Shown here: piece by piece, positions 31,303 through 47,492 of the stretch
How the letters are laid out: each line of letters opens with the position of its first letter
How positions within the stretch are numbered: the first letter of the stretch is position 1
Assembly (NCBI GenBank): GCA_964549615.1
Contig: CAZJVP010000078.1
Location: 1 to 48,333, forward strand
DNA from: an uncultured Thermococci archaeon
Lineage (GTDB): Archaea > CAYQAE01 > CAYVLA01
Direction: 5' to 3'
DNA: 48,333 nt
Translations under genes and position numbers: made by a program
Notes under the pieces: model-generated
Database searches by the model: none
What the model was told of the DNA's origin: nothing
Seen by the model: the letters and a program-made list of their open reading frames with translations, nothing else

Positions 31303-31486
31303 AGCGATCTGCCTCCGCTCTCGGCAGCAAGCCTTCCCCAACTTGCAGGTTCGGCAACGCCGGTTCCTCCCCCGGGAACCGCATTAGTGGGAAACACCAT
31401 TAATATCACATGTCCGCCCGGTCTTTCCATGCCAGGCTACTCCGGCCGGTCCTGAGTTTGGAGTTAAATCTTTCCCGGGTGGAAGA

Positions 31487-32512
31487 TTGACAGAGAGATT
31501 GCTGTTGCGCCTTTCCGGCGAGCACCCGATCTTGCCCATGCTTGAGGCGCAGCGGCTCTTCTCCAGGATCGACCCGAAGTCGAAGCTGGAGAGCGTGGGG
31601 GAGCGCCTCGCATTGGTGACGACCTCCCTTGACGCGCCTAGGGCTGAAGCCGTATGCCGAAGGTTGGCTCTGACTCGCGAGGCCTCAAGGGTCATCGTGA
31701 CCCATGCGGACGGCGGCGAGGTGCCCGCGCATCTGCTGGACGAGGTCCGGGACAGAACTTTCCTCGTCAGAGCCTCGGGCTTTGGCCCTTCCACACCCGA
31801 GGCCGAACGGCTGGTAGGAAGGAGGATACTGGAGCAGGCGTGGTTGAGAGGCATCAGTACATCGGTTTCCGTTTCAAGACCCGGCGTCGTCCTCCTCCTT
31901 TCGCGCACGCGGGCTGGGGACATGATCTCCGTCTTGATCGAGACGGACACGAGATCCTCCTGCAGGGCAAGGGCAGCGGCAAGACCGTTCAGACACCCGG
32001 TCGGGATCGACCCCGTCATCGCGCGGGTGATGTTGAACATGGCGGGGGTTCTCGCGGGGGAATCGGTCCTGGACCCGTTCTGTGGAACGGGCAGCATACT
32101 GGTAGAGGCCGGAATGATGGGGGCCCGCATATTCGGCATGGACTCGGACCAAAGGATGATCAAAGGCGCACGCCGAAACCTGGTCGCGCTGCAGCCCGGA
32201 AGGGCATTCCTCGTTCGGGGCAACGCGCTGAGGTCTGCGGCAACCTTCAGGGCAAGATTTGACCACGTAGTCACGGACCCTCCATACGGGAGATCATCCC
32301 CCACGATGATGGACGCTGCCAAACTGCTATCCGAGTTTCCAGCAACAGCCCGGGAGCTGCTGGGCCGCGACGGAACCCTGTGCATCGCGTCCCCATCCAC
32401 CATTGACCTCTCCGACGAGTTGACGAGAGCAGGCCTGATCCTAGAGGCCTTCGTGTACCAGCGCGTGCACGGCGGCCTGGGAAGACATCTATATGTCGCC
32501 AGAAGGTGCTGA
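31487..32512 (+). CDS. trm11: tRNA m2G10/m2,2G10 methyltransferase (Trm11/TrmG10)
   Basis: LSGEHP, RPF.HP, LDPFCGTGS, TDPPYGR, RVH..L.R. Confidence 0.85.
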   Translation: MTERLLLRLSGEHPILPMLEAQRLFSRIDPKSKLESVGERLALVTTSLDAPRAEAVCRRLALTREASRVIVTHADGGEVPAHLLDEVRDRTFLVRASGFGPSTPEAERLVGRRILEQAWLRGISTSVSVSRPGVVLLLSRTRAGDMISVLIETDTRSSCRARAAARPFRHPVGIDPVIARVMLNMAGVLAGESVLDPFCGTGSILVEAGMMGARIFGMDSDQRMIKGARRNLVALQPGRAFLVRGNALRSAATFRARFDHVVTDPPYGRSSPTMMDAAKLLSEFPATARELLGRDGTLCIASPSTIDLSDELTRAGLILEAFVYQRVHGGLGRHLYVARRC

Positions 32513-34296
32513 CGGCCCCGGGGAGCTTCGGCTTGTTCGAAATGCTTGACAGGGATGCCTTCGGACGTCTAGGAGTCCTCAAGACCGGCCATGGGGATAT
32601 CACGACGCCGACCGTCCTTCCCGTCGTCAACCCTTTCCGCGAGACCCTCAGCCCGTCTGAAATCCTTGAGATAACTGGAGCCCCGGCGCTGATCACGAAC
32701 GCCTTCCTTCTGTACAGCAAGCCGGAATCGAGGAGGCGCGCCCTCGAGGTCGGGGTGCACGAGTTTCTCGGTGTGGACTGCCCGATCGCCACCGATTCAG
32801 GAGGGTATCAGATCTACAGGGGAAAGAAGGTCGAGGTTTCGCCGCAGGAGATCCACCAGTTCCAGGCCGATATAGGGTCGGACCTCGCCGTCGTGCTAGA
32901 TGTTCCACCGAGGGACGACATGTCCGAGGATCAGGCCCGTGCCTGCATACGGGAGTCCGTCGCAAGGTCAAGGGATCTCTGCAGATCAATGCCCCCGGGC
33001 CCCCTATGGTACGGCGTTGTGCATCTTACGCCGTACGCGCGGCTCAGACGTCAAGAGGCGCAACAAGTCTCGGCGATGCCATTCCAGGTATTTGCCCTCG
33101 GCAGCTGCGTTGGCTCGCTGATCGAGTACAGATTCGAGTCCCACCTTGACCGCGCGGTGGACACAGCGAAGAGGCTTCCGCCTGATCGGCCTCGGCATGT
33201 ATTCGGCGTCGGGCACCCCATGTTCCTTGCGCTTTCCGTTGCTTTCGGGGGGGATCTATTCGATTCTGCTATGTATGTCCTTTCCGCCCAGGAAGGAAGA
33301 TACCTCACCCCCCAGGGGACGCTATCCGTGCGTGACCTAGTCGAACTTCCCTGCAGCTGCCCGGCATGCAGCCACGCATCCCCCCAGGAGATGGCCGGCG
33401 GAGATGACGCAGTCCGACTACTGGCTCAGCACAACCTGTACTCGACCTTCGAGGAACTGCGCAGGGTTCGACAGGCAATCAGGGACAACAGGCTCTGGGA
33501 GCTGGCGCAGGTTAGGTGCCGCAGCCACCCGAAGTTGCTTGGAGCTTTCTGCAACACCCTCAGGCGCCACAGGACTTTCTTCGAGCAGGTAGATCCGGTT
33601 ACGAAGAAGTCGGCCTTCTTCTACTCCGGCCCGGAGTCCAAACTTCGTCCGGAGGTGACCAGAGCCCGGCGCTGGGTGAGGGAGCGCCTACCTGAAGCGC
33701 CCGCTTTCCAGCATCCCGTCTACGGTCGCGTTCCGTACGCCGCCTCGCTCTGCTACCCGTTCGGGCAGACCGAGATGACGAGCCGACTCGAGGAGTTCTT
33801 GGGGAGGAAGGATGCGCAGCCGACCGACGAGGAAATCGTTAGGGCTGCGGTTGACTTCCAGTTCGGGCCGGGATGCGGATCAGCCTTGGAGCCCTTTCGG
33901 GCAGTCCGGTCACCCAGGACGGGCCGCATCAGGAGGGTCCAGAGGGGCCATGTCCTGCTGGGCACGATGAGGGCAAGCGATTTCTTCTTCCTCCCTACCT
34001 TGGAGGGAGCAAGGCTGCTCGGATCGCACCTTCCATACCCGACTATGAGGATCGCGGTTTCCGACGAAGCTGCCCCCTTCGTTTCGCAAGGGAAGTCGGT
34101 TTTCGCTAAGTTCGTCCATGCCTGCGACCCGAAACTCCTTCCTGGCCAGGAAGTCCTCATCGTGGATCGGGAGGACAACCTTCTCGCGACCGGGACCGCG
34201 TTGATGAACTCAAGGGAGATGCAGTGCTTCAGGGTCGGGATGGCGGCTAAGGTTAGACACCACTTAAGGACGGCCCTACGGGAAGATCTCCCTTAG
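32506..34296 (+). CDS. tgtA: Archaeosine tRNA-guanine(15) transglycosylase with PUA domain
   Basis: TDSGGYQ, FGVGHP, DLFDS, CSCPAC..H, C-terminal GKSVFAKFV PUA domain. Confidence 0.95.
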   Translation: MLTAPGSFGLFEMLDRDAFGRLGVLKTGHGDITTPTVLPVVNPFRETLSPSEILEITGAPALITNAFLLYSKPESRRRALEVGVHEFLGVDCPIATDSGGYQIYRGKKVEVSPQEIHQFQADIGSDLAVVLDVPPRDDMSEDQARACIRESVARSRDLCRSMPPGPLWYGVVHLTPYARLRRQEAQQVSAMPFQVFALGSCVGSLIEYRFESHLDRAVDTAKRLPPDRPRHVFGVGHPMFLALSVAFGGDLFDSAMYVLSAQEGRYLTPQGTLSVRDLVELPCSCPACSHASPQEMAGGDDAVRLLAQHNLYSTFEELRRVRQAIRDNRLWELAQVRCRSHPKLLGAFCNTLRRHRTFFEQVDPVTKKSAFFYSGPESKLRPEVTRARRWVRERLPEAPAFQHPVYGRVPYAASLCYPFGQTEMTSRLEEFLGRKDAQPTDEEIVRAAVDFQFGPGCGSALEPFRAVRSPRTGRIRRVQRGHVLLGTMRASDFFFLPTLEGARLLGSHLPYPTMRIAVSDEAAPFVSQGKSVFAKFVHACDPKLLPGQEVLIVDREDNLLATGTALMNSREMQCFRVGMAAKVRHHLRTALREDLP

Positions 34297-35229
34297 CACA
34301 ACCGCCTTGCCCATATCGGAGGCGGCCATCTCCCTTCCGTTGAGCAATGACCTTCCCTGCCCCACCGGCTGCCCTTTCCAGCGCACGACAACCTCATCGT
34401 CCGGCCTAATGGCGGGGTCCGCCGAAATCACCCCTGGACAGTAGATGACCTTCACCTTCGGCCGGAAGTCTATGTCAACGCAATAGGCACCCTGATCGGC
34501 TAGGATTCTTGCGCCCTCGATCTCGGGCGTGAAGAAGCCGGTGAAAGGATTCCTCCTAGCCAACGTCTTCCCGTCGCGGACGATCCTCTCCATTCTTGCC
34601 GACACATCCCTCCTTGCCGGGGGGAGCGTCATGAGTTCCGCGATGTTAAGTCCATACTGGTAGGAGAGTACATGCTTGGCCAGCTCGATCGGATCCCGGC
34701 GCCTCGGTTGGCCGTCGATGCCGCGAAGCGCTTTGGACAGCTCCTCCAGCCCCTCCTTGGATGCCGGGCCGCCCGTGCCCGTGTAGGTGAAGGTCCAGCC
34801 AAGCGCCGCTTCAGCGCGCCTGCAGGCGTCCAAGTACCCTCCCGAGACATGGGCAATCACCTCGGTCGGCGAGTGCTTGGATAGGACGGTCGCCAGGCTG
34901 CTCGAGACCACTTCGACCTCCTCGTGGCTCCACACGCCGGTCACGGCGATGTCGTAGTTGCTGGCGGGTGGGATGGTCTCCAGGGCCCGCGGCACGGCCC
35001 CCAGCGGGCTGGTGATCGTGAGTTCCTCAACGCTTGCTCTCCTCCTGGCCGGCCCAATCGCCTCGGCAAAGAGGCGGTGAGACCTAGATGAGATGTAAGG
35101 CTTGTGCTTGGAGCAGGGAAGGACGACCACGCAGTCCGCCCCAACGCCCGGTTGGTATCTGGATGCGACCCGCTCCCTGAAACGCACAACCTCAGGCCAG
35201 TATATGGACAGGTCAGTGAAGGCGATCAA
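34276..35229 (-). CDS. arcS: Archaeosine synthase ArcS, catalytic plus PUA part
   Basis: LPCSKHKPY..S.SH, TSPLG.VPR.LE, YDIAVTG.W, PUA domain (IRPDDEV). Confidence 0.88.
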   Translation of the reverse strand: MIAFTDLSIYWPEVVRFRERVASRYQPGVGADCVVVLPCSKHKPYISSRSHRLFAEAIGPARRRASVEELTITSPLGAVPRALETIPPASNYDIAVTGVWSHEEVEVVSSSLATVLSKHSPTEVIAHVSGGYLDACRRAEAALGWTFTYTGTGGPASKEGLEELSKALRGIDGQPRRRDPIELAKHVLSYQYGLNIAELMTLPPARRDVSARMERIVRDGKTLARRNPFTGFFTPEIEGARILADQGAYCVDIDFRPKVKVIYCPGVISADPAIRPDDEVVVRWKGQPVGQGRSLLNGREMAASDMGKAVVLREIFP

Positions 35230-36077
35230 CCGCTGACCCCCGGGCAAACCGTCGTGAACCGCTCAAGATACCTCAGATGTTCCCGATAGAGGCGACGGAG
35301 CGCCGCGGCCAGCTCTGGTTGCCTCGTGCATCTCTCCTCGGCCAAGTGCTTCAGCTGCCCCTTGCGGATGGCGGTTCTGACCTCCGAGAGAACCTTCCTG
35401 GTCATCCACCGGTTATGTCCCAAGACGTCGATGGTCCGCTGGCCCTCCTCCGCCTTGCAGGATGGGCAAGAGCAAGCATCGGGGTCGACCGTTCCGACGG
35501 GCAGCGAGAACGACTCGAAGAGGACCTCGCCCCTCATGGCGCACGCAGTTGCGTGGGAATCGCCGAAGAGGTCGGCCCCGGCCAAGGCGAAGAGTGGGAA
35601 TGACCACACTTCCGCGTCGGCCAACATTATCGCCGAACTGGGGGGGATCTTCTCCCTGAGCTCGATTATGCCTTTCATGACCTCAACGGGATCCTGCTTC
35701 AAACCGGGTTCCAAGATGACTACGGCCCGTCTGGTGGCCGAAGGCCCCTGAATTCCTTCGCCCGACATCTGGACGATCTCGCAGTCGCTTAACACGTAGG
35801 TGTCCTTCGCCCGTCCGGGAGAGAACCCCGCGCTGCCGCCTTGTCCGCCTTCATCCCGGAGTTCCGCCCGGCTTACCTGCCTTGACCGTTCAACCAACGG
35901 GGAGGGCGGCACCGCAAGCATTATGCCCGCGGACTCCGGTCCCAGAATGAACAGCCGCAAGCCGTTCTCCACCTGCTGCAGGAAGCAGCCGGAGGGCGTC
36001 TCGTAGGAACGACCCTCTACGCGAAACTTTCCCAGCCGTGCGGGCCCATCGTGCGAAAGGACCTCGACTCCGATCAT
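35226..36077 (-). CDS. ArcS N-terminal TGT-like part
   Basis: HDGPARLG, GADLF, CSCPSC..HN, EVR.AI..G.L..L.E.R. Confidence 0.8.
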   Translation of the reverse strand: MIGVEVLSHDGPARLGKFRVEGRSYETPSGCFLQQVENGLRLFILGPESAGIMLAVPPSPLVERSRQVSRAELRDEGGQGGSAGFSPGRAKDTYVLSDCEIVQMSGEGIQGPSATRRAVVILEPGLKQDPVEVMKGIIELREKIPPSSAIMLADAEVWSFPLFALAGADLFGDSHATACAMRGEVLFESFSLPVGTVDPDACSCPSCKAEEGQRTIDVLGHNRWMTRKVLSEVRTAIRKGQLKHLAEERCTRQPELAAALRRLYREHLRYLERFTTVCPGVSG

Positions 36078-37618
36078 CGCCGAATCACGCTGAGAACTTC
36101 TCCGGTTAGAAGTCTTTCGGACGCTGACCTGACCACCCTGACTTTCAGCCTCTGGCCAATCAGACTCCTAGGCCCCCGGACGGTCACGATGGGTCCCCCG
36201 GCCACCGGATAGCACAGCACCTCGCCCTTCCTCTTCATGTTCGGCTCGGCCCCGATGACGTCAAGCATGCGTCCGGCGTATTCTTCCTTCTTCCTGAGGT
36301 TGATCTCCCTTGCGGCCTGCGCGATGATTTTGCTCGATTCGTCCTTCCACCTTGGCGGGCCGGGCGGTTCACCCTCGAAGGCAGAGCGCGGCAGGGGCTT
36401 GAACCTGTAGACGGTGATCTTCTCGACGTATGGCTCCATCCTGTACATGAGCTGGCACGTCCTCCTTGCGGACTCAACGGTCTGGCCCGGCAGGCCGTGG
36501 ATGAAATAGACGTAGGGCCTGAGGCCATGCTTCTTGGCGGTCCGCACGGCCTCCAGCGAGTCACTAGGCGTAGATGGCCTGCCAAGGGCGTTTGAGTGTG
36601 AGGCATCACCGGTCTCGCAGCCTATGTGAACCTCGCTGCCTGGGAGGTTCTTGGCGATCACGCGAGCAGCTTCATCGTCGAAGAGCGAGGGCTTGACGTT
36701 CTCTATCGAGATGTGTGCACGCCCGCCCGCCGCTGCATTCGACGCGGCGAGGAGATCATCGATCTTCGCGTAGTTCGGCCGGGGCGCACGGGGATCCCTG
36801 AGGTCGTTGCCCCTAAAGTAATCCAGCAGATCGGGCGCGCTGAGCACGATCCTCTGGACCCCCAGCGCAACGAGCTCCTCCACTTCCCTTGCCACAAGGT
36901 CGATCCTCCTGGACTTGGGAGGACCGAACGTTGACGGGACGGAGCAGAAGCCACAGCCGGGCGGTATGTCTTGAGGGCAGGCCCGGTGGCAGTCCTTCCC
37001 ACACTCTGTGCAGCCGCGGCCATCCGAAAGCCTGATTCGGGTCCTGTTGAAGTTGCTGCACCCCCTCACCACCTCAACGTAGACCCTGCTCGCGAAGTGA
37101 GTCGGGTAATCCACTATCCTTCGCGTGGAAGGGAAAAGCCGGTTGTACTTGTCCTCCCCAAGCCGGGGAGCCGGCGGGTTGGTCAGGATTCGCCCGTCCA
37201 GCCAGTACGACAATCCCGGCACGTTTCCAGGTTCCTTGCCCGCGAGGATGGATTGCAGCGCTTCCTCACCCTCGCCCGAGACGGCCAGATCGAACCCCGA
37301 TGCCTCAAGCGCTCTCCGAGGAGAGCCGCAAACCGGCCCCCCCACGATCTTGAGCGAATCGGGCGCAATCCTTGCTGCCTTCCTGCCGATCCTCCTCAGT
37401 GCCGGGAGGTCCATGCTCATTGCGGAAGCCAAGAGAAAGTCCGGCGCCCTGCCGGCCGTTCGGCCCTTGAGAAACTCCTCACAGAGCTGGATGCGGCACT
37501 CCACGTCCGCCCTTTCAAGGACCCCGCAGATCCACCGAGGCCCACAACCTATGACATCCCTCGCCAGCATCCTCGTGCCCTTCGCTGATCCGAGAGCGTC
37601 GACCATGAGGGCCCGCAT
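36074..37618 (-). CDS. Radical SAM protein with B12-binding-like N-domain, interrupted Cys motif and C-terminal TRAM-like domain
   Basis: RDVIG.GP, VGGP, GEGE, EVVRGCSNF...CGFC, GCETG, YFIHGLPG, C-terminal beta-rich G...VRV segment. Confidence 0.85.
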   Translation of the reverse strand: MRALMVDALGSAKGTRMLARDVIGCGPRWICGVLERADVECRIQLCEEFLKGRTAGRAPDFLLASAMSMDLPALRRIGRKAARIAPDSLKIVGGPVCGSPRRALEASGFDLAVSGEGEEALQSILAGKEPGNVPGLSYWLDGRILTNPPAPRLGEDKYNRLFPSTRRIVDYPTHFASRVYVEVVRGCSNFNRTRIRLSDGRGCTECGKDCHRACPQDIPPGCGFCSVPSTFGPPKSRRIDLVAREVEELVALGVQRIVLSAPDLLDYFRGNDLRDPRAPRPNYAKIDDLLAASNAAAGGRAHISIENVKPSLFDDEAARVIAKNLPGSEVHIGCETGDASHSNALGRPSTPSDSLEAVRTAKKHGLRPYVYFIHGLPGQTVESARRTCQLMYRMEPYVEKITVYRFKPLPRSAFEGEPPGPPRWKDESSKIIAQAAREINLRKKEEYAGRMLDVIGAEPNMKRKGEVLCYPVAGGPIVTVRGPRSLIGQRLKVRVVRSASERLLTGEVLSVIRR

Positions 37619-38081: not shown

Positions 38082-38987
38082 TCAGCGAGCGCCAGCGAGC
38101 CTCATCCTCTCCGCCACCTCGGCAGCGGTCGGGAAGGCTAGTGGCCTTGGCCTTTCTATCACGATCGCGGCGAGCGCTGAGCCAAAGTTTGCAGCTTCGA
38201 TCGTAGAGCGCCCGCGGAGGCGGCTGAAAACGAATCCTGCCATGAAGCAGTCTCCTGCCCCCGTCCAGTCAACGGGATCAGAGGGATAGGCGGGAATCCT
38301 GTGGGCCCTGCCATCCTCGAATGCGAGCGCGCCTCTCGGGCCCAGCGTGATCAGCACGGTTTTCGGGCCATCCAGCTCGGCGATCCTGTCCTCCCAACGG
38401 GCCCTCTCTCCCAGCAGCGCTTCCGCCTCTGCCTCGTCGAACTTCACCGCGTCCACGTCGCGCAGGACGCTCCGGATTCCGGGATCTAGGCCCCTTCGGG
38501 CGTGCACGACCTTGGTCCGAGGTTTCACTTGCCTTGAAAGCCCCTGTATGTCGAGGGTGACAAGGCGGAAGTCGTCCTTTTTCAACGCCCAGACGGATCG
38601 ATCTATCTCCGCTTCCACCGGGCCAAGGTGAAGTGCCGCGAAGCCCAGCATGCGGCGAGGGATATCATCCGCGCGGATGACCGACGAGCGTCTCAACAGC
38701 CTGAGGACCCTCCTCTCCCCCTCGTAGACGAGCTCAAAGCAGGCCGTGGCGCCCTGGCCCACGCCGTCCGTCTGTATTGCGGCCCTCCGAAGCTCCTCGA
38801 GTACCCACTGGTCTTGAGCTTTGGACACGCAGGCCGCCGTGCCTCCCAGGGCGCGGAAGGCGGCTGGAAAGTAGTACGATGTCCCTCCCAGGCCCCGCCT
38901 AGTCCCCGCTGGGGTCTTCACGATATCCTCGCACAGCGCGCCTATGACGACGCAGGACTGTCTCAAAGCCTGAGCCGTGCCACCCAA
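38082..38987 (-). CDS. PfkB family carbohydrate kinase
   Basis: GG..Y, ITLGPRG, DWTGAGDCF; AGGTGA SD before TTG. Confidence 0.88.
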   Translation of the reverse strand: MGGTAQALRQSCVVIGALCEDIVKTPAGTRRGLGGTSYYFPAAFRALGGTAACVSKAQDQWVLEELRRAAIQTDGVGQGATACFELVYEGERRVLRLLRRSSVIRADDIPRRMLGFAALHLGPVEAEIDRSVWALKKDDFRLVTLDIQGLSRQVKPRTKVVHARRGLDPGIRSVLRDVDAVKFDEAEAEALLGERARWEDRIAELDGPKTVLITLGPRGALAFEDGRAHRIPAYPSDPVDWTGAGDCFMAGFVFSRLRGRSTIEAANFGSALAAIVIERPRPLAFPTAAEVAERMRLAGAR

Positions 38988-38991
38988 GACA

Positions 38992-40053
38992 TCACCTGTA
39001 GACGAGGATGCCAACGATCAGGGCTGCCAGCCCTGCGGCAAGGCAGATCGCCCAGTGTACGCGGACGTGCCATCGCTCGTCCTTCCGATAGAGGTGCATC
39101 AACAGGAAGTAGAGTGACCCGCGCTCCGCGCCTTCGGGTGCCTTCAGGGTTCCGTCCTCCCTGATGCTTGCGAACTTGGCGTTCGGGTTTGCCATGAAGA
39201 ACCTCGTCTTAGGCAGGTACATCAGGAAGTTGATGATCTGGGGGGCGAGGGCTATCACGGCGATGATCTTGATTCTGCCCACTATCGAAGCTAGAGCGAG
39301 CGATGTGCCGATGACGAGCGTGCCGACGTCGCCAGGGAAGACCCTTGCGGGATAGCTGTTGAAGAGGAGGAAGGCGAGGAGGGCACCCACCATTGGGGCC
39401 AGGATTATGACGGCCTCCCACCTGCCGATGATCGCCGCTGCGATGCAGGTTGAGGAGCATGCTATGAGTCCGCTGCCCATTTCCAGCCCGTTGAGGCCTG
39501 CGTACATGTTGGTTAGGTTTGCTGCGGCCGTTACCCCGACCGGTATCAGAACAAGCGGGTACAGTATTCCCAGCGGAAGGTAGCCGTAGAATGGAATCCA
39601 GAAATCGGTCCTGTAGAACTCGGTCTCGCCGAAAAATGCCAGCGCGAGGGGAAGTGAAGCAAAGGCGGGAAGCAGGACCTTGTACTTCTGGGGAATGCTC
39701 AGGTAGTCATCGACGAGCCCGATGAATCCCACGGCCAGAAGGGTTGCGACGGATGCAAGCATCCAGACCTGCATGGTCGTCTTTCCAGGAAGGCGGGTTG
39801 CGTCCGCCGAGTAGCCGTACGTCACGAAGAGGTAGGTTGTGATCGATAGGCTCACGATCACGGCAAGGACCACGATGATGCCTCCTGACTCGGGTACGAG
39901 CACGTCTCCCGCCTTCAGCATATCCCTCCCAAGGATATTCTCCTTCCGGAGCTTGATGAGGAGCTTCGGCATGCCAGCATACACGATGGCGAACGCCATC
40001 AGGCAGCCGACGGCCGAGAGGACGGGAGATAAAAGGTCTGCATCCCAGTTCAT
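38992..40053 (-). CDS. UDP-GlcNAc:polyprenol-phosphate GlcNAc-1-P transferase (GPT/AglH, MraY-like family)
   Basis: PESGG, GLVDD, NMYAGLNGLE, NSYPARVFPGDVG. Confidence 0.92.
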   Translation of the reverse strand: MNWDADLLSPVLSAVGCLMAFAIVYAGMPKLLIKLRKENILGRDMLKAGDVLVPESGGIIVVLAVIVSLSITTYLFVTYGYSADATRLPGKTTMQVWMLASVATLLAVGFIGLVDDYLSIPQKYKVLLPAFASLPLALAFFGETEFYRTDFWIPFYGYLPLGILYPLVLIPVGVTAAANLTNMYAGLNGLEMGSGLIACSSTCIAAAIIGRWEAVIILAPMVGALLAFLLFNSYPARVFPGDVGTLVIGTSLALASIVGRIKIIAVIALAPQIINFLMYLPKTRFFMANPNAKFASIREDGTLKAPEGAERGSLYFLLMHLYRKDERWHVRVHWAICLAAGLAALIVGILVYR

Positions 40054-41060
40054 GCCTCGAGCGCCTCCTCAATGGCGTCGCAGTAGCGTCCGGCCACCGA
40101 CTCGATCGAGAATCCGAGGGCAAGTCGCCGACATTTCTCGGACGTCCTGCGGTACTCCTCTTCACCCATGCGGGCAACGGCCCGGATCGCTGCGGCATAT
40201 TCCTCAGGCGTTCCCTGCTCGATCTTCGTCACGCCGTCTTGGATCGATGGGTCGAGCTTCCCGGGCGATGCCACGGGCAGGCCGCATGCCATGTACTCAA
40301 GGAGCTTCAGGCTGCCGCTCATTACGGGCGGAACAAGCCCCATCCGGGCTAAGTTTAGTAATGCCGGGACGTCCTCGTACCTGGCGTACCCGTGGAAGGT
40401 TATGTCGGCTCCCTCTTTCCTAGCGAGATCTTCATAGTACCTTGCGTGCGTGCCCCTCCCTATGAAGAGGCTGCGCGTGCCCGTCGCCGCAACGGCCTTG
40501 ATCAGGGTTTCCAGCTTGTACTGCCTCTCGATCTTCCCCAGATAGCAGGATTCGTATCGCTTCGGTTCATGGTCAGCCGGCTTGAAGATGCCGAGGTCTA
40601 CACCGTTTGGGACGTAGACGACCTTGGTCTCCTTGAATCTCTCGGAATATTCGAGGAAGTTCCCGTGATCGGCGCAGATCAGAAGGTCCATCTTGCAAAT
40701 CAGCCGCTTCTCCACTGCGTCCACGACCAGCCCCTTCAGACGCCTGGCGTGGGTTATGGATCTTTCCACGTCGGTCACATCGACGATCTTCTTTGCTCGC
40801 TCGAGGGCGGCGAGCAGCGGAACGTAGTAGTAGTTCCACACGAGAACCCCGTCATAGCCCCCTCGGGCTATTCTGGTCGCGAGCTTGGCGAAGGTCGTCC
40901 CGTAGTCCAGGTAATAGTTCACGTGAGTTGAGGGGGGTATGTGGAGGAACTCGAGATTGAACCGCTTCTCCAGGAACGGCCGCATCCTCAGGGGCCTGGA
41001 CATCGGGGTGTACCTCTCCTCATCCCTTTGGACTGGGTATGCAGCGAGCAGGCTGCGCAG
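40050..41060 (-). CDS. GT4 glycosyltransferase
   Basis: VPNGVD, YLGKI, LKLLEYMACGLPV; start either ATG 41003 or CTG 41060. Confidence 0.85.
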   Translation of the reverse strand: MRSLLAAYPVQRDEERYTPMSRPLRMRPFLEKRFNLEFLHIPPSTHVNYYLDYGTTFAKLATRIARGGYDGVLVWNYYYVPLLAALERAKKIVDVTDVERSITHARRLKGLVVDAVEKRLICKMDLLICADHGNFLEYSERFKETKVVYVPNGVDLGIFKPADHEPKRYESCYLGKIERQYKLETLIKAVAATGTRSLFIGRGTHARYYEDLARKEGADITFHGYARYEDVPALLNLARMGLVPPVMSGSLKLLEYMACGLPVASPGKLDPSIQDGVTKIEQGTPEEYAAAIRAVARMGEEEYRRTSEKCRRLALGFSIESVAGRYCDAIEEALEA

Positions 41061-41073
41061 GGATCATCCCTTC

Positions 41074-42075
41074 CTACAGCTTCTTGACCTGATGGTCCCT
41101 TCCGGATTCCTCGGCCAAGAGGGCGATCTGGACTGCCTTGACCCCATCTTCTCCGGTGACGGGAGGCTCCCTTCCCTCCGCCACGGACTTGATGAAGAGG
41201 TCCAGCTCGACCTTCAAGGGCTCCTCCTTTTTGACCAGGATCTTTCGCATCTCGCCCTCGCTCATCCCGAGCAGGATGTCCGAAAAGTCCGAGAACTCCT
41301 CAACGTACGATATGTCGTACTTATACAGGTCCTGTGGTATGTAGTCGACCTCGAACATCGCCTTCAGTCCCTGCACGACCAGGCGCCTGATCTTGATCGG
41401 AGTGAGCCAGTTGATGTCGACCGAGGCGACGACGCCGTTCTTGAAGCTTAAGAGGATCTTGCCGTAATCGGTCTGGTCTTTGTGTATCACCCGCCCGCAT
41501 TCGCAGTACAGCCTCTCGACCTCGGAGCCAAGCGCGTATCTGAGGACATCGATGTCATGGACTCCAAGGTCTACCAGGGCGCTGACGTCCCGAACCCTGT
41601 TTGGGAGTGGTCCTGCCCTGGTTGCTGCCGCGATGGTGGGGTCGCCAAGTTCTCCCATCATCTCCTTCATCTTCATGACGGCTGGGTTGAATCTTTCGAC
41701 GTGCCCGACCATGAGCGAGACGCCGCGCTTCTTTGCCTTCCTAACTAGCGAATTGCCCCGCTCCACGGAGAGGTCGATGGGCTTCTCGACGAGCAAATCC
41801 ACGCCGTTCTCGATGGCAAGGGACGCCATCTCGTAGTGCTGGGCCGTTGGGACCGCGATGCTGACGGCATCGATGTCGATGGAGGACAGCATCTTCTCCG
41901 CGCTCTCGAAGAAGGGCACCTTGTAGATCTTGGAGATCCGGCGGCCTCTGACCGGGTCGGTGTCGCACACGGAGACCAGTTCCGCTCCTTCCAGCTCGTT
42001 ATAGATTCTGGCATGATTTCTGCCCATCTCGCCGACGCCGATGACAGCGGTCCTCACGGGCCCCAACGTTTTCAC
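41074..42075 (-). CDS. Gfo/Idh/MocA oxidoreductase, probable UDP-GlcNAc(A) 3-dehydrogenase
   Basis: VIGVGEMG, VEKPI, GHVERFNP, DLGVHDID, WLTP.K.R, EEPL..E. Confidence 0.88.
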   Translation of the reverse strand: MKTLGPVRTAVIGVGEMGRNHARIYNELEGAELVSVCDTDPVRGRRISKIYKVPFFESAEKMLSSIDIDAVSIAVPTAQHYEMASLAIENGVDLLVEKPIDLSVERGNSLVRKAKKRGVSLMVGHVERFNPAVMKMKEMMGELGDPTIAAATRAGPLPNRVRDVSALVDLGVHDIDVLRYALGSEVERLYCECGRVIHKDQTDYGKILLSFKNGVVASVDINWLTPIKIRRLVVQGLKAMFEVDYIPQDLYKYDISYVEEFSDFSDILLGMSEGEMRKILVKKEEPLKVELDLFIKSVAEGREPPVTGEDGVKAVQIALLAEESGRDHQVKKL

Positions 42076-42292
42076 TCAGACCGTCATCCCGGGATGGACT
42101 CTTAAATGCCAACGTGGAAAATCTGGGGTTTTACCCGCAGCAACCAACTGTATCGGTGCCCGTCTAAGATGGTCCAGAGCAAAGGCACGCAGCAGGCTGA
42201 AACCTTGCCCGGCGATAGCCGGGTAGCGTGCTAGCACGGATTCCCACCAAATCGGAGGCCATCCGGTGGAAACCACAAGGCCGTGCAGACCA

Positions 42293-43798
42293 TCAAGTCT
42301 TCTTTGCGTAGAAAACGTAGGCACGTCCCTCGAAAAGCAAGTCATAGTCCTTTTGGAGAGTTGCGTTGATGTGCGCCCATGCCTCCGGTTCAGACCTCTT
42401 GTACCTCTGGAAATTTGCTCTGTATCCGGGCGAGATGGCCAGATAGTCGGGCCGAACCCCGGTTCGAAATCCGAGCCTGTTATCGTCCTGCACTATTTCA
42501 TCGTTGAAGTCGTAGAAGAAGGCGATCTCCGCGCCGCCGCAGATGAGGCCCCCCTTGTAGTAGGTCGAGTTGAAGGTCCTAAGGTCCGGGAGATATTGGT
42601 TACCGTACTCGTTTCTCACAATCGTGTATACGTTGCTAGCGACGGAGACAGCTAGGATGTAGCTCAAGGCCAGAACGAACAGGGTGTCTGCGTACTTCCG
42701 TCTCCTCACCTGCTGCCAAAGCGCGAGGACGTTCATCAGGAAGAACGGCACTATCCAGACGAGATATGTGGAGGTTTTGTTCCCGACTAGGAACATGAGG
42801 CCGAGGAAGATGGTGACAAGCATGCCCCACAGGAGCAGGTCCTTCCCTTTCGCGAGAAACGGGTAGCCGAAAAGTCCAAGGAAGTAGAGGACAAGCACTG
42901 GCGCTGGCGCGCGTTTGATCACGCTGTCCACGGACAGGAAACCGTGGGACTTAAGATACCTTGTGATCACCTCGTAGTAGACGGATGACCATCTGAGGCC
43001 ATTTGCAAAGACTTCCTCCTGTTGTCTGCCGAGCGTGTTGATCAGCAACTGTTCGCGGAACGCGCTGAAGTCGCGCGCGATGTAGGTTCCCCAAGCGGCG
43101 GCGCCGAGGATGTAGGGCACCAGCGTTATGAGGAGCGTCTGTCGAGTTATCCTCTTTCTGTCCAAGTAGACTACCATGAAAAGGAGTGCCAATAGCCCCA
43201 GGAGGCCGTTGGGGTGCGTCAGACCCGATAAGCAGATGAAAGCGTTTCCCAGCAGGATCGCCATCGAGAGGTTGCTGGTTCTAAACCTCAGGTAGGCCGA
43301 GAGACCTAACAACGACAATGCGGCGGCCATCATATCCATCCGGCCGTCGCTCGCAGACTTGAGGTAGAAGAAGTTGGTGCCGACGAGGGTCATCGAAAGC
43401 ACTGAGAGCGCGCGACTCCCACCGAAGAATCTGGCCGACAGACTCCGAACAGCAAGAAGTCCCGCCAGCCCCCATAGAAGGCTCATGAAGCGAGCTTGGA
43501 GAAGCCCAACACCGGCCAGTCCAAAGGTCAGCGCTTCCGTGACGAAGTACATGGGCGGAAGCCAGTATGTGTACTGGTGGATTCTTGGGAAGTCGGTGTC
43601 ATCGGCCAAAAGGGTGTTACCCATGAAGCCATTCCTTAGCAGGTTGACTGCCGAACTTGCGAACCAAGCCTCGTCGCACCAAGGAGCGTTGGTGGCGATC
43701 CTTCCTCCGGCTAGGGTCAGGTAGATAAGAACCGGCACCAACGTGAACCATCTGTTTTCGGTCACGCGACGAATGACACCAAGCCCCCACCACGTCAT
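42293..43798 (-). CDS. ArnT/PMT-like (GT-C fold) membrane glycosyltransferase
   Basis: PWCDE loop motif, WLPP.Y, GRMD, THPNG; more than 10 TM helices. Confidence 0.8.
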   Translation of the reverse strand: MTWWGLGVIRRVTENRWFTLVPVLIYLTLAGGRIATNAPWCDEAWFASSAVNLLRNGFMGNTLLADDTDFPRIHQYTYWLPPMYFVTEALTFGLAGVGLLQARFMSLLWGLAGLLAVRSLSARFFGGSRALSVLSMTLVGTNFFYLKSASDGRMDMMAAALSLLGLSAYLRFRTSNLSMAILLGNAFICLSGLTHPNGLLGLLALLFMVVYLDRKRITRQTLLITLVPYILGAAAWGTYIARDFSAFREQLLINTLGRQQEEVFANGLRWSSVYYEVITRYLKSHGFLSVDSVIKRAPAPVLVLYFLGLFGYPFLAKGKDLLLWGMLVTIFLGLMFLVGNKTSTYLVWIVPFFLMNVLALWQQVRRRKYADTLFVLALSYILAVSVASNVYTIVRNEYGNQYLPDLRTFNSTYYKGGLICGGAEIAFFYDFNDEIVQDDNRLGFRTGVRPDYLAISPGYRANFQRYKRSEPEAWAHINATLQKDYDLLFEGRAYVFYAKKT

Positions 43799-44085
43799 TG
43801 TAGCTGCTGGACTGAGTCGCGCACAAATAAAGGTTCTTCGACGCGGACGCGGATGATGGTGACGGCGTGCATCCGACGGGGCGGCTCGTCTGGCAAAAAG
43901 TGAGCCCATGCTAAGGGAGGGTTTTTGGCCAGCTTACGGACCAGAGCATCCGATGCGGTCCCTGGCGGTCGAAATGTTCGTCGCTTGCATCGAGGTCGCT
44001 ATGCCCAAACAGGCCTGGCAATCATTATCAAGACGCTAGCACAAGCTCAACCGGGATTCCAGGTAGGGATTTCACGGGTGACGCG

Positions 44086-44943
44086 ATGGTGAGGTACCTG
44101 CTCATATCGAATCTTTACAATGAAGAGGCCAACGTCAATGGCCTGTTTGATTGCGTGGAATCCCAGACCCTGCCCCCGGCACTCTGGTTAATCGTCGATG
44201 ACGGAAGTACGGACGGAACCCATAGCCTCCTGCTCAAGAGGGCGAGTTCAACTCGGCTGAAGGTACAGGTTTGGACCGCCCCGCCCAAGCCCAGGCCGGA
44301 TCACGACAGCATAGGCCTTTCGATAAAGGGTGCGCTCCACTCGCTCGACCCAGATGTCTATCGCAGCTTCGACTACTACTGCGTTCTAGACGCCGACTCC
44401 AGGATCGGGCCGACGTACTTTGATCAGCTCCTCAGCCGCATGGAAGCCTCTCCTGGGCTAGGGATGGCATCCGGAGTTGTCTGGACGAAGGAGGGGGCGG
44501 AGGCGACTAGATCTGACCTTGCAAGGGGCTCGGGCAGGGCGACCAGGGCCAAGATCTGGCTGTCGGTCCCCATTGATGATATGCCGAACGTCGCGTCCGA
44601 TGCGTTCTTCAACGCGAAGACGAAGATGATGGGATTCTCCTCCGCCATGTTCAACGATCTGCGGGTAATCCAGGACAGACCTACGCGTCAGATGACGCCT
44701 GCTGGACGGTATCGGCGGGGTCGGCTTATGGCCATGTTTGGGTACAACCCCGTGGTTGTGCTCGGGCATGCCCTCTTGACCCTCCTAAGGAAGCAGAGTC
44801 CATTGCCTCTGATTCGGGGGTATCTGCACGGCCTCAGGGGCCCAAGGATAGGCGATCCCAGTGTAAGGGCCTATTTTGGTCGGCGGATGATCATCGACTG
44901 GGCGAGAGAGAAGTTGTCGCGACGGCGAAAACGACCAGCGTAG
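44086..44943 (+). CDS. GT2 glycosyltransferase
   Basis: YNEE, VDDGSTDGT, LDAD. Confidence 0.88.
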   Translation: MVRYLLISNLYNEEANVNGLFDCVESQTLPPALWLIVDDGSTDGTHSLLLKRASSTRLKVQVWTAPPKPRPDHDSIGLSIKGALHSLDPDVYRSFDYYCVLDADSRIGPTYFDQLLSRMEASPGLGMASGVVWTKEGAEATRSDLARGSGRATRAKIWLSVPIDDMPNVASDAFFNAKTKMMGFSSAMFNDLRVIQDRPTRQMTPAGRYRRGRLMAMFGYNPVVVLGHALLTLLRKQSPLPLIRGYLHGLRGPRIGDPSVRAYFGRRMIIDWAREKLSRRRKRPA

Positions 44944-45044
44944 CCCAAGAGCTCGTATGCGCTGGTATCTTTCGTGGGCAAGATATAAGACGGCACAGGG
45001 CAAGCATAGGTCAAGACCCTGGCACCCGTGGGTGAAGGGGTGCC

Positions 45045-46334
45045 GTGGGGCCGGTGAACCTCGAGATGACCATTCAGATCTCCTTCGAAAGCCAACGCGG
45101 GGCCTGGCCAACCCTCAACGCCCATCTTCCTGCAAGGATCGATGAGGCGTCCTTCGTCGACGTCATTCGGTACGGCTGGGTCGTGGATGCCGAGGGCACA
45201 CTCCTCTCCGGAGTAAAGAAGAAGATCAGATATGACGGCACCCGCGGCCCGCGGACCAACCTTGCTGAGGCCCTGTCATCCGCAATCGGTCGCTCCGTGG
45301 AGAAGAGCCACGGGGTCGGCTGCATGATCTCCGGGGGGGTGGACTCCACCATCGTTTTGGCCGCTTTGGCGGGCGTCACGGATAAGACCATCCACGCGTT
45401 CACGGTCGCCTTTGGCGAGTCGGATGACGAGACGGCTAGGGCCAAACTGGCGGCCGATGCCTTCGGTGCCACACACCATATCGTATGGTTCAAGATCCCG
45501 GAGGTGCTGGAGAAGGCCCGGACCTGGGCGAGGCTGTCGCCTTCGGGACGTCTTGTGTACCTGCCAGTGCTGGAGGAAGCGGCCAGGTTGGGCATCGATA
45601 CGCTGTTCAGCGGCGAAGGAGGGGACGAGGCGTTCGCTGGTTATGCGCAAAGGTATCTGAGGATGCTGAAATACTACAGGTACCGACCAACAAGGAGGTT
45701 GGCTGGTCTAGCTTCCTTCCTACCCGGCAGGTGGGGCCGTGTGGCGGGGATTCTGCGGCACACAGCTTCATTTGAGGATTTCTACGCGGCATGGCAGACC
45801 CGTGTCCCGGACATGCGAGGTGGGCACGGAATACCAGCCGATGATGGCGCGGAGGATTGGATCGCAAGGATCCTGAGGCTGGAGAGGCAGCTGAAGCTTG
45901 TGGACTACCTCGCGCACATCCACTGCTGCTCCGTTGCGTACGGGGTGAACGTCGAGTACCCGCTTCTTGAGCCATCGGTGGAGTCCTTCTCGTCCCCTAG
46001 GGAATGGACGCGGATGTGGGATGGCCACACCCTCCACGGCAAGTACCCGCTTGTCGAGGCTCTGAAGACGATGGCTCCGCCTGAGATCGTGAGAAACGCC
46101 ACAATGCCGAAGCACGGGTTCTCGCCGCCATCCATGGACAAGTGGTGGTCGATGGGGCTCTGCGAGCTCCACAAGGAGACACTCAAAGGCCCCTTGAGGG
46201 ATATGCTGCCGAGGAGCATGGTTGAGCTTGGAGATAAGCCTTCTGCAGGGAAGCGTTCCCTCTACGCCGCGGCTCTGGATGCTTGGTGTGTAGACAGGTT
46301 CATCCAAGGCTCCCCAGGCGAACGGTCAGGGTGA
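45045..46334 (+). CDS. Asparagine synthase-like ATP pyrophosphatase (synthetase domain only)
   Basis: SGGVDS, SGEGGDE.FAGY, YPLL, K.GF; no N-terminal Cys glutaminase domain. Confidence 0.82.
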   Translation: MGPVNLEMTIQISFESQRGAWPTLNAHLPARIDEASFVDVIRYGWVVDAEGTLLSGVKKKIRYDGTRGPRTNLAEALSSAIGRSVEKSHGVGCMISGGVDSTIVLAALAGVTDKTIHAFTVAFGESDDETARAKLAADAFGATHHIVWFKIPEVLEKARTWARLSPSGRLVYLPVLEEAARLGIDTLFSGEGGDEAFAGYAQRYLRMLKYYRYRPTRRLAGLASFLPGRWGRVAGILRHTASFEDFYAAWQTRVPDMRGGHGIPADDGAEDWIARILRLERQLKLVDYLAHIHCCSVAYGVNVEYPLLEPSVESFSSPREWTRMWDGHTLHGKYPLVEALKTMAPPEIVRNATMPKHGFSPPSMDKWWSMGLCELHKETLKGPLRDMLPRSMVELGDKPSAGKRSLYAAALDAWCVDRFIQGSPGERSG

Positions 46335-46358
46335 GACCCGGAAGATCCGCGAAGGTCC

Positions 46359-47492
46359 ATGGTTACATTTGAGAGCCGACGACGCCGCGCCCGTCGCGAG
46401 GGAGATGTTGCACACTTGAGGGTATTGATGCTCGGGGATCAGGCGAACGTGGCGATCCAACTCTCCAGTGGCCTAGCTCGCCTGGGGCATGAGGTGTGGC
46501 ATGTTCTCGTGGATACGGCGGATGTCAGGGCACGGGTTCCGGCCGAGCCAACCAAAGGAGTTGAGTTGGTGTGGAGCAAACCGACCTTGCCGTCATTGCT
46601 TGGGCAAGCATCGCGGCTGTGTCGTGACACAAACTTTGACATCGTGCACTCACACTGGATAACTTCCTTCGGGATTGCCGGCAGCGCCTCATCCCTGCTT
46701 TCCGGTGGAAAGCATGTCGCCCACCTGCACGGAGACGACATCAGGCGAGCGAGGCTCACCCCACAGAGGCATCTGCGTACGAGAATGGGTGCATGCGTTT
46801 GTGACCTTTTCCTCTACTCTACGCCCGATCTTCACGATCTCCTGTTTCTCGGGAAGGAGGCCAGGTACCTTCCCAATCCTGTCGACACATCGGTCTTCAA
46901 GGAAGTCGATGGGGCAGACAGCTTGAGGGAGTCCCTGCTGAGAGGGCGGGACAACCTGGTGCTCGCGCCCGGCAGGTTCGACCTTGCGACCAAGAACCAA
47001 GACGTCCTAGTGGAGGCACTGAGCTCGCCGGATTTCGAGAACGTGCAGACCGTTTTCATGAGCGCCACGGGTGGGGGGGACTACGAGCGGCTTGTGAGGC
47101 TAGTCAGGCAGTCGGGCATCGATCACCGCGTCTCTTTCATCGTGGGCGTTGGGAACAGGGAGATGCCGGCGTACTACAGCTGTGCGGATGTGGTGGCCGT
47201 GGGTTTCAGGCTGGGGGTCTACGGATGCGCCGTCACCGAGGCGATGGCGTGTGCGAGGCCGGTGATTTGCCACTTCGAATTCTCAAGATACAAGAGGTTC
47301 ATCCACGAGAGGCCGCCTCTCCTGGACGGGCGCGATGCAGGTTCCGTTTCAGGTTGGCTCTCTCAGCTGATTGCCGATCCTAGTTTGAGGAGGCGGATCG
47401 GCAAGGAGTCGCAGTCGTGGGTTCGAAGAGAACACTCGCTGGGCCCCGTGGCGAGGAGGTTGGCGAACATCTACGGCGATGTGCTCGGATAG
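46359..47492 (+). CDS. GT4 glycosyltransferase
   Basis: DIVHSH, HLHGDD, PNPVD, EAMACARPV; true start probably a little downstream. Confidence 0.85.
   Translation: MVTFESRRRRARREGDVAHLRVLMLGDQANVAIQLSSGLARLGHEVWHVLVDTADVRARVPAEPTKGVELVWSKPTLPSLLGQASRLCRDTNFDIVHSHWITSFGIAGSASSLLSGGKHVAHLHGDDIRRARLTPQRHLRTRMGACVCDLFLYSTPDLHDLLFLGKEARYLPNPVDTSVFKEVDGADSLRESLLRGRDNLVLAPGRFDLATKNQDVLVEALSSPDFENVQTVFMSATGGGDYERLVRLVRQSGIDHRVSFIVGVGNREMPAYYSCADVVAVGFRLGVYGCAVTEAMACARPVICHFEFSRYKRFIHERPPLLDGRDAGSVSGWLSQLIADPSLRRRIGKESQSWVRREHSLGPVARRLANIYGDVLG

Follow-up and report, generated by a model that had tools for sequence, protein, structure and literature searches.

The stretch analysed here (the window; 48,333 nucleotides, contig CAZJVP010000078.1 of assembly GCA_964549615.1, from an uncultured Thermococci archaeon) carries on its minus strand a gene for a 514-amino-acid (aa) radical S-adenosylmethionine (SAM) protein, P0001, which belongs to a widespread and uncharacterised family of archaeal three-domain radical SAM enzymes. 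In this family the three cysteines expected to hold the SAM-cleaving cluster are split by a loop, 34 residues long in P0001, that contains four further cysteines kept in nearly all members. We tentatively read the protein as an uncharacterised class-B radical SAM methyltransferase with a putative second metal site in the loop; the substrate of the enzyme would be a macromolecular component of the translation machinery, with tRNA or some other RNA as the likeliest candidate. We place the probability of this reading as a whole just short of even. The gene overlaps the start of arcS. The initial annotation of the window had offered two explanations for this coupling: a non-orthologous replacement of RaSEA, the radical SAM partner of ArcS, or an uncharacterised tRNA-modifying enzyme. 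The former was contradicted by the genomic data presented below, while the latter gives the best reading of the gene.

Domain architecture and the split cluster motif

Comparison with family models placed P0001 in the radical SAM superfamily, with PF04055 (Radical_SAM) well over its cut-off (67 vs. 29.5 bits, 2.9e-18). The B12-binding model PF02310 also exceeded its cut-off (34.9 vs. 32.1 bits, residues 29–124), which confirms the label of a B12-domain radical SAM protein given initially. This domain was matched by 23 of 24 relatives, and searches with the family profile hit the B12 domains of MgmA, TokK, CysS and OxsB. Its GGP and GEGE motifs are kept throughout the family and line up with the equivalent part of MgmA. 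None of the 24 members matched the methylthiotransferase N-terminal model UPF0004 at E ≤ 0.01, and the family alignments hold no invariant or near-invariant cysteine within residues 1–186, that is, before residue 187.

The C-terminal domain had been labelled TRAM. Pfam TRAM matched 8 of 24 aligned relatives (best 4.2e-6) and did not match P0001 at E ≤ 0.01; alignments with MiaB, RimO and MtaB extend through residues 511–514 and so cover the domain. The label is therefore supported for the family and, for the window protein, indirectly by its predicted structure. Fifteen NCBIfam models matched P0001 at E ≤ 0.01, and all those quoted here remained below their cut-offs. The best of them was TIGR04013 (MJ_1487 family; 106.1 vs. 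251 bits, residues 219–434), and lower scores were obtained for TIGR04014 (the methyl-coenzyme M reductase (MCR) glutamine C-methyltransferase MgmA; 78.3 vs. 360 bits) and TIGR00089 (MiaB/RimO; 73.4 vs. 251 bits, residues 222–503). Models named in the initial annotation were among those compared: the RimO, MiaB and MtaB equivalogs reached 37–45 bits against about 356, and the RaSEA model TIGR01210 had no match in P0001 at E ≤ 0.01.

An AlphaFold2 model computed from a 104-row alignment (pLDDT 95.8, pTM 0.94) consists of a Rossmann-type N-terminal domain, a partial TIM barrel and a C-terminal five-strand domain. The top Foldseek matches were an MtaB model, MgmA and MiaB, all at E about 1e-24. 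In VIA-align, where rows within 1 Z unit count as ties, MgmA gave a Z of 30.0 (rmsd 2.7, 376 aligned residues, model residues 2–503), followed by MiaB (28.2), MtaB (27.8) and RimO (27.3), each aligned over 403–424 residues. AprD4 reached a Z of 23.9, and CysS, OxsB, TsrM and TokK scored between 19 and 23. By its predicted fold, the family lies between class-B methylases of the MgmA type on the one hand and methylthiotransferases on the other. Features that tell these two groups apart speak for the class-B group, since the N-terminal domain is of the B12 type in 23 of 24 relatives and keeps GGP and GEGE, UPF0004 is matched by no member, and conserved cysteines are lacking before residue 187.

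The canonical radical SAM cluster motif is CX3CX2C. In the window, positions 36944..37060 of the minus strand translate exactly to CSNFNRTRIRLSDGRGCTECGKDCHRACPQDIPPGCGFC, in which the cysteines are spaced C187-X15-C203-X2-C206-X3-C210-X3-C214-X7-C222-X2-C225. The motif string, the 34 residues between the first cysteine and the CxxC pair, and the four extra cysteines had all been pointed out initially, and both the translation and an alignment of 104 homologues bear them out. C187, C222 and C225 are kept in 104 of 104 sequences; C203 occurs in 98 of them and each of C206, C210 and C214 in 99. The spacing seen most often in this alignment is C-X15-C-X2-C-X2-C-X10-C-X7-C-X2-C, while the clade of the window has a shorter loop pattern, C-X2-C-X3-C-X3/4-C. 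C214-P215 is near-invariant, and the loop cysteines form a ferredoxin-like pattern (CX2CX2CX10CP in most members, CX2CX3CX3CP in P0001). The loop region was modelled with a pLDDT of 84–88. Five distant members lack the four loop cysteines and retain C187, C222 and C225 together with a loop of 18–26 residues.

Alignment of the family profile with MgmA (9CCB) pairs '...HRGC' with the family '...VRGC' and then jumps directly to 'PGNCTFCQVPEFFG' against 'PPGCGFCSVPSLFG', so that the uninterrupted RGCPGNCTFC of MgmA corresponds to RGC-[loop]-GC-FC in the family. On this alignment C187 is the homologue of the first cysteine of CX3CX2C. Two lines of evidence, the MgmA alignment and the five members that retain C187, C222 and C225 without the loop cysteines, point to C187 as the first cluster ligand, as had been proposed initially, and by the same evidence the four loop cysteines are an added module.

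The family itself is broad. Full-length homologues carry generic source names such as 'B12-binding domain-containing radical SAM protein' or YgiQ. Sixty representative clusters among 1.84 billion matched at E ≤ 1e-30; beyond those 60, scores dropped to about 1e-19, with relatives of approximately 390–510 aa that match in two stretches flanking the loop, the second starting near residue 217. Species genomes yielded 396 relatives and metagenome contigs 422, from Hadarchaeota-labelled metagenome-assembled genomes, Asgard archaea, Bathyarchaeia and others, and the protein atlas returned generically named archaeal radical SAM clusters only. No fused form of 901–2570 aa was seen at E ≤ 1e-30, which is weak evidence on such forms. 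Literature searches, which did not reach subscription papers and supplements, gave no description of the family, no paper joining radical SAM, B12-binding and TRAM domains in archaea, and none joining Hadarchaeota with archaeosine.

Several otherwise full-length Asgard matches (G200:C84, G200:C480, G202:C1, G054:C66, G031:C1 and G153:C289; G numbers denote genomes and L numbers loci in our sets) show a single in-frame TAG or TAA, and the RaSEA of G200 likewise contains an in-frame stop. These could reflect stop-codon recoding, pseudogenes or sequencing errors.

Relation to ArcS and genomic context

ArcS is described as requiring RaSEA for lysine transfer and archaeosine formation (available text of PMC11298593). 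A replacement of RaSEA by the window protein was rejected on the following grounds: a canonical RaSEA in the same genome, the missing TIGR01210 match, the co-occurrence of family and RaSEA in 88 of 96 family-carrying Asgard genomes, ArcS and RaSEA over cut-off in just one of five genomes looked at closely, and the rarity of the arcS linkage (7 of 148 loci). The search for RaSEA elsewhere in the genome of the window, which the initial annotation had suggested, found it at G000:C104:9884-10810 with 339.8 bits against a cut-off of 212.15 (a 397-aa open reading frame (ORF) in L001). Among 201 evenly sampled Asgard genomes, requested at ≥80% completeness and searched at E ≤ 1e-40 for the family and E ≤ 1e-50 for RaSEA, both were present in 88 genomes, the family only in 8, RaSEA only in 71 (159 with RaSEA) and neither in 34. 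These lists were compared by hand and no statistics were drawn from them, related genomes not being independent. The table shows that the family neither replaces nor requires RaSEA. When the two genes lie on the same contig (G002, G034, G076, G105, G202), they are at least 89 kb apart. Among five other family-carrying genomes, ArcS and RaSEA were over cut-off in one, G002, in which ArcS adjoins RaSEA and the family gene lies about 0.7 Mb away; the chromosomes of G001 and G003 (loci L012 and L057) gave neither ArcS nor RaSEA over cut-off.

To follow the linkage, the ArcS N-half, ArcS C-half and TgtA of the window were compared by tblastn with 80 species-genome and 80 metagenome loci around the family gene, of which 148 remained after removal of 12 duplicates. 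An arcS gene adjoins the family gene in 7 of these distinct loci (L002, L003, L088–L092), as well as in the window itself and in one deeper relative of the same phylum (G006). When only loci with at least 1 kb of downstream sequence were counted, arcS was found in 6 of 128; L092, with a flank of 655 nt, shows the arcS start. Linked loci in this set are all at least 54% identical to P0001, and unlinked ones all at most 49%. The gene occurs in four of five genomes examined from the phylum of the window. The most distant of these carriers, G006, belongs to the same class and another family, and its protein is about 35–38% identical; here the gene overlaps the start of an unsplit arcS (534 aa, NF040592 312 bits), and the flanks differ from those of the window, consisting of aroD and a phosphoribosyltransferase gene. 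The overlap of the stop and start codons is kept in the window and in all eight linked relatives. In a FastTree phylogeny of 150 rows, the window and the seven closer linked relatives form one clade with support of 100; the G006 fragment falls outside this clade on a long, uncertainly placed branch, and on this tree the linkage may have arisen once or several times.

The radical SAM gene and arcS thus form a conserved two-gene unit, restricted to the phylum of the window, and the family as a whole is independent of ArcS. The coupling put forward initially holds for that phylum and fails for the 141 of 148 distinct loci that are without arcS.

Two side observations concern these genes. The G006 homologue appears split (L087:9380-9420, G006:C2), which is due to a run of N in the assembly (translated as XXXX) and not to a frameshift. 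Another locus (L168:1618-2994, plus strand; G005:C1) encodes a 458-aa fusion of a RaSEA-like radical SAM N-terminal part (TIGR01210 positions 2–178, 113 bits; PF04055 1.3e-9) and the DUF5591 domain known from ArcS (1.8e-14). This natural fusion is in keeping with the known ArcS–RaSEA complex and suggests that it is the DUF5591 portion of ArcS which RaSEA contacts.

The features of the window are collected in Table 1. The initial coordinates of the radical SAM gene delimit a real ORF, with an ATG start on the minus strand, as read from the ORF list and translation; Met5 offers an alternative start (37606), at which the database copy (510 aa) begins. The overlap of its TGA stop with the ATG of the arcS N-half (ATGA) was read in the sequence as had been claimed, and the reported adjacency of tgtA and trm11 was also found. 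The tgtA gene is convergent with the arcS C-half, and the aNOP56 gene comes after the stretch with the Trm11-type gene and tgtA. A minus-strand ORF opposite the Trm11-type gene (31384..32403, 339 aa) has no family match and is a shadow ORF. The 129-aa ORF upstream is conserved among close relatives, with copies of 66–76% identity in the corresponding position of L002, L088 and L089. Further upstream of the radical SAM gene lies a glycosylation gene cluster.

The two arcS halves overlap by 22 nt in the window (34276..36077, minus strand). The same split recurs in L088, L089, L091 and L002, and arcS is whole in L003 (593 aa; L003:7653-9431) and in G006 (L087:7042-8646). Because of this recurrence in relatives and of the whole genes in L003 and G006, the split is real and recent within the lineage of the window, and no assembly error.

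Table 1. Positions of the radical SAM gene, the parts of its product and the surrounding genes in the window
Feature	Position	Strand	Evidence and remarks
Radical SAM gene, P0001, 514 aa	36074..37618	-	PF04055 2.9e-18; PF02310 1.5e-8; full-length homologues 40–75% identity
N-terminal Rossmann-type B12-binding-like domain, ~residues 1–165	37124..37618	-	PF02310; GGP (93–95), GEGE (115–118)
Radical SAM core, ~residues 166–445	36284..37123	-	PF04055 residues 214–390; aligns with MgmA 9ccb and MiaB
Split cluster motif C187-X34-C222-X2-C225	36944..37060	-	three Cys in 104/104 homologues
34-residue loop (188–221) between first and second cluster Cys	36956..37057	-	C203, C206, C210, C214-P215; putative second metal site
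C-terminal TRAM-like five-strand domain, residues 446–514	36077..36283	-	DSSP strands 451–512; net charge +7, pI 10.8
arcS N-half, 283 aa	35226..36077	-	NF040592 positions 1–259, 97.6 bits
arcS C-half, 323 aa	34276..35247	-	DUF5591, C2, PUA; NF040592 positions 264–574, 287.2 bits; DUF5591 1.2e-46; PUA 1.1e-9
tgtA (archaeosine tRNA-guanine transglycosylase)	32506..34296	+	TIGR00432 407.5 bits vs. cut-off 350; TGT, C1, C2, PUA domains
Trm11-type (UPF0020) methyltransferase gene	31487..32512	+	PF01170 5.6e-30; overlaps tgtA start
Upstream ORF, 129 aa	37642..38031	-	no Pfam or NCBIfam family at E ≤ 0.01
Glycosylation cluster	38082..47492		pfkB-family kinase, GT4 (MraY/AglH-like), GT1, GFO/IDH/MocA oxidoreductase, 538-aa membrane protein (weak PMT_2), GT2, asparagine-synthase-like protein, another GT1

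In other lineages the family gene is surrounded by lineage-specific housekeeping genes, many of them of translation or transcription. Clustering of the five genes on either side at 80 genome loci gave methionine aminopeptidase (28 loci), Roadblock (27), aIF1/SUI1 (26), TFIIB (22), an ArsA/Get3-type ATPase (21), class II aminoacyl-tRNA synthetase, GT4 glycosyltransferase and PcrB (17 each), tRNA-splicing endonuclease (16), RpoH (15), and PCNA and an exosome subunit (10 each). The GT4 gene stands mostly at position −1 and is divergent; a GT4 gene is also part of the upstream cluster of the window, and this neighbourhood may be an old synteny.

Proposed activity and competing readings

If the protein works as we propose, C187, C222 and C225 would hold the SAM-cleaving [4Fe-4S] cluster, the 5′-deoxyadenosyl radical would take a hydrogen from an unactivated carbon of the substrate, and a methyl-cobalamin carried on the N-terminal domain would hand over the methyl group. 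The four loop cysteines would hold a second metal centre beside the SAM cluster, most likely an auxiliary [4Fe-4S] cluster serving as an electron relay to it or, alternatively, a structural Zn site. Their role is probably accessory and not catalytic, as suggested by the five members that manage without them. The C-terminal domain would dock the substrate, for which tRNA or another RNA is the likeliest candidate. We favour methyl transfer on account of the B12-binding type of the N-terminal domain and of the cobalamin dependence of MgmA, the closest solved relative; methylthio transfer, which the initial annotation had named as well, is disfavoured because the UPF0004 domain and the Cys triad are absent. 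The case for tRNA or another RNA as the most likely substrate is circumstantial and comes from the context of arcS, tgtA and the Trm11-type gene, the translation-type neighbours, and the basic character of the family. Its members have a median net charge of +13.5 and a pI of 9.1 (9.7 for the C-terminal domain), with +20 and 9.5 in P0001 (10.8 for its C-terminal domain).

Several observations weigh against the proposed RNA methyltransferase. AprD4, which has a B12-like domain and is not known to need cobalamin, likewise matches the structure well (Z 23.9), and the N-terminal domain alone is therefore no proof of methyl transfer. The usual last enzyme of cobalamin assembly, CobS (PF02654), was found in none of five genomes (G000, G001, G002, G003, G006), so that any corrinoid must be salvaged. 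The same five genomes hold 4–17 B12-binding-domain matches each, including ORFs of the size of corrinoid proteins (approximately 210–270 aa), and from their gene content these archaea appear to use corrinoids without that enzyme. On the substrate side, P0001 lacks a Pfam TRAM match, and the C-terminal domain does not settle the question of RNA or protein, because MgmA and RimO, both with protein substrates, align there. An arcS gene adjoins the family gene at just seven of 148 distinct loci, besides the window and G006, no operon partner is common to all lineages among the 80 genome loci, and the distribution in Asgard is patchy (96 of 201 sampled genomes).

An enzyme of the same class might instead modify a protein that serves translation or transcription, for example an initiation factor or a ribosomal protein, a possibility that we consider unlikely but not to be neglected. 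The structural fits of MgmA, which modifies a glutamine of McrA (Z 30.0), and of RimO, which modifies ribosomal protein S12 (Z 27.3), rival that of MiaB (28.2); MgmA is described as having a large peptide-binding cleft (available text of PMC11796369); and aIF1/SUI1, RpoH and TFIIB, all frequent neighbours, are protein-coding genes of translation and transcription. Set against this are the coupling to arcS, tgtA and the Trm11-type gene in the phylum of the window, which points to tRNA, the strongly basic character of the family, and the Pfam TRAM matches in 8 of 24 members. We give a somewhat smaller chance to an N-terminal domain that is a cobalamin-free relic, in an enzyme of other, non-methylating radical chemistry. 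OxsB and AprD4, which combine varied chemistry with a B12-like domain, match well (Z 22–24), PF02310 is barely over its cut-off (34.9 vs. 32.1) and CobS is missing from all five genomes. However, the protein that matches best by sequence as well as by structure, MgmA, is a methylase with proven cobalamin dependence (PMC11796369, in the part available), GGP and GEGE are kept family-wide, and the host genomes encode many corrinoid proteins.

A methylthiotransferase variant is improbable. In it the four-Cys loop would replace the auxiliary cluster of UPF0004 and supply or carry sulfur for a tRNA modification, e.g., ms2 of A37. The core and the TRAM-like domain do align in full length with MiaB, MtaB and RimO, and the TIGR00089 alignment covers residues 222–503, but with 73 bits against a cut-off of 251. 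In MiaB and RimO the methylthio group needs an open iron on the auxiliary cluster, and a site ligated by four cysteines has none to offer; moreover, the N-terminal domain is of the B12 type and UPF0004 is matched by none of 24 members. The e-MtaB model TIGR01578 stayed below its cut-off in the genome of the window (99.5% complete) and in G001, which would suit such a variant; in three of the five family-carrying genomes (G002, G003, G006) e-MtaB was over cut-off, and this co-occurrence argues against complementarity. A replacement of e-MtaB by the family was rejected for the same reason, bona fide e-MtaB being present beside the family in those three genomes. Lowest of all we rate a partnership with ArcS in the phylum of the window, either as a second RaSEA-like partner or in a further modification of preQ0-Lys or archaeosine at the 7-deazaguanine of position 15, which seems very improbable. 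It would account for tgtA next to the pair and for the stop/start overlap, which the window shares with eight relatives, even at about 35–38% identity and with differing flanks. It conflicts with the canonical RaSEA of the same genome, the lack of a TIGR01210 match, the 141 of 148 distinct loci without arcS, the separation of the adjacent ArcS and RaSEA genes of G002 from the family gene by about 0.7 Mb, and the occurrence of members where ArcS and RaSEA are both missing (chromosomes of G001 and G003) or where RaSEA is missing (8 of 96 Asgard carriers).

Returning to the class-B methyltransferase, it is possible, although on balance unlikely, that the family represents the first cobalamin-dependent radical SAM methylase acting on RNA, with a loop-nested [4Fe-4S] relay and, as its product, a new C-methylated tRNA or rRNA nucleoside in archaea of the Asgard, Bathyarchaeia, Hadarchaeota-type and related lineages. 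If this were true, class-B radical SAM chemistry would reach nucleic acids, and an RNA modification would await discovery in the lineages closest to eukaryotes. In any case, a single-copy, well-conserved enzyme without an assigned function is carried by roughly half the Asgard genomes in the sample and by many other uncultured archaea. CX34CX2C with a nested four-Cys site would be a new way to place a second metal centre near the SAM cluster; in the literature searched, no description was found of extra metal ligands nested in the radical SAM cluster loop. A CX34CX2C motif would escape classifiers that recognise radical SAM enzymes by a CX3CX2C motif. For annotation, the tempting call of a RaSEA substitute is removed, and a radical SAM–arcS operon and a split arcS are documented in one phylum.

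Comparison with known systems

Among known radical SAM enzymes, an expanded first stretch of the motif is also seen in QueE. No extra metal ligands are known in the QueE loop, which has 14 residues as opposed to the 34 residues with four conserved cysteines described here, and the two enzyme classes are unrelated. QueE, with its CX14CX2C motif, is nonetheless a precedent for an expanded stretch between the first and second cysteine (available text of PMC4389238). RaSEA (TIGR01210) resembles the window protein in being a radical SAM enzyme whose gene can adjoin arcS and differs from it in architecture; P0001 has no TIGR01210 match at E ≤ 0.01.

The TIGR04013 (MJ_1487) family provides the best NCBIfam match and relatives of approximately 420–450 aa at E 1e-13 to 1e-19, matching in the two stretches that flank the loop. 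The score is far under the 251-bit cut-off, and the alignments to the model start after the loop, near residue 217. The function of MJ1487 is itself a prediction, a BzaE-like role having been proposed (available text of PMC11742838).

MiaB, MtaB and RimO (TIGR00089; PDB 7MJV, 9A6D and 4JC0) share with the family a three-domain layout, in which a flavodoxin/Rossmann-like N-terminal domain and the radical SAM core are followed by a TRAM or TRAM-like C-terminal barrel. The family differs in lacking UPF0004 and the Cys triad of the N-terminal domain, which scores as B12-binding instead, and its extra cysteines sit in the cluster loop and not in the N-terminal domain.

The best match in sequence and structure is MgmA, also named QCMT (PDB 9CCB; TIGR04014; profile E 3.5e-27, Z 30.0), the same structure being listed under the latter name in the available text of PMC12931638. 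Both have the same domain order, from the B12 Rossmann domain through the radical SAM core to the C-terminal domain, and the flanks of the motif align, at 'RGC' and at 'GC.FC..P..FG'. In MgmA the motif is an unbroken CX3CX2C (RGCPGNCTFC), without the loop or the extra cysteines; identity is just 20–22%, and TIGR04014 scores 78 bits against its cut-off of 360. MgmA is described as binding cobalamin (0.89 per protein) and C-methylating a glutamine in McrA (available text of PMC11796369). Its substrate is McrA, while the family described here occurs in lineages labelled Asgard, Bathyarchaeia and Hadarchaeota.

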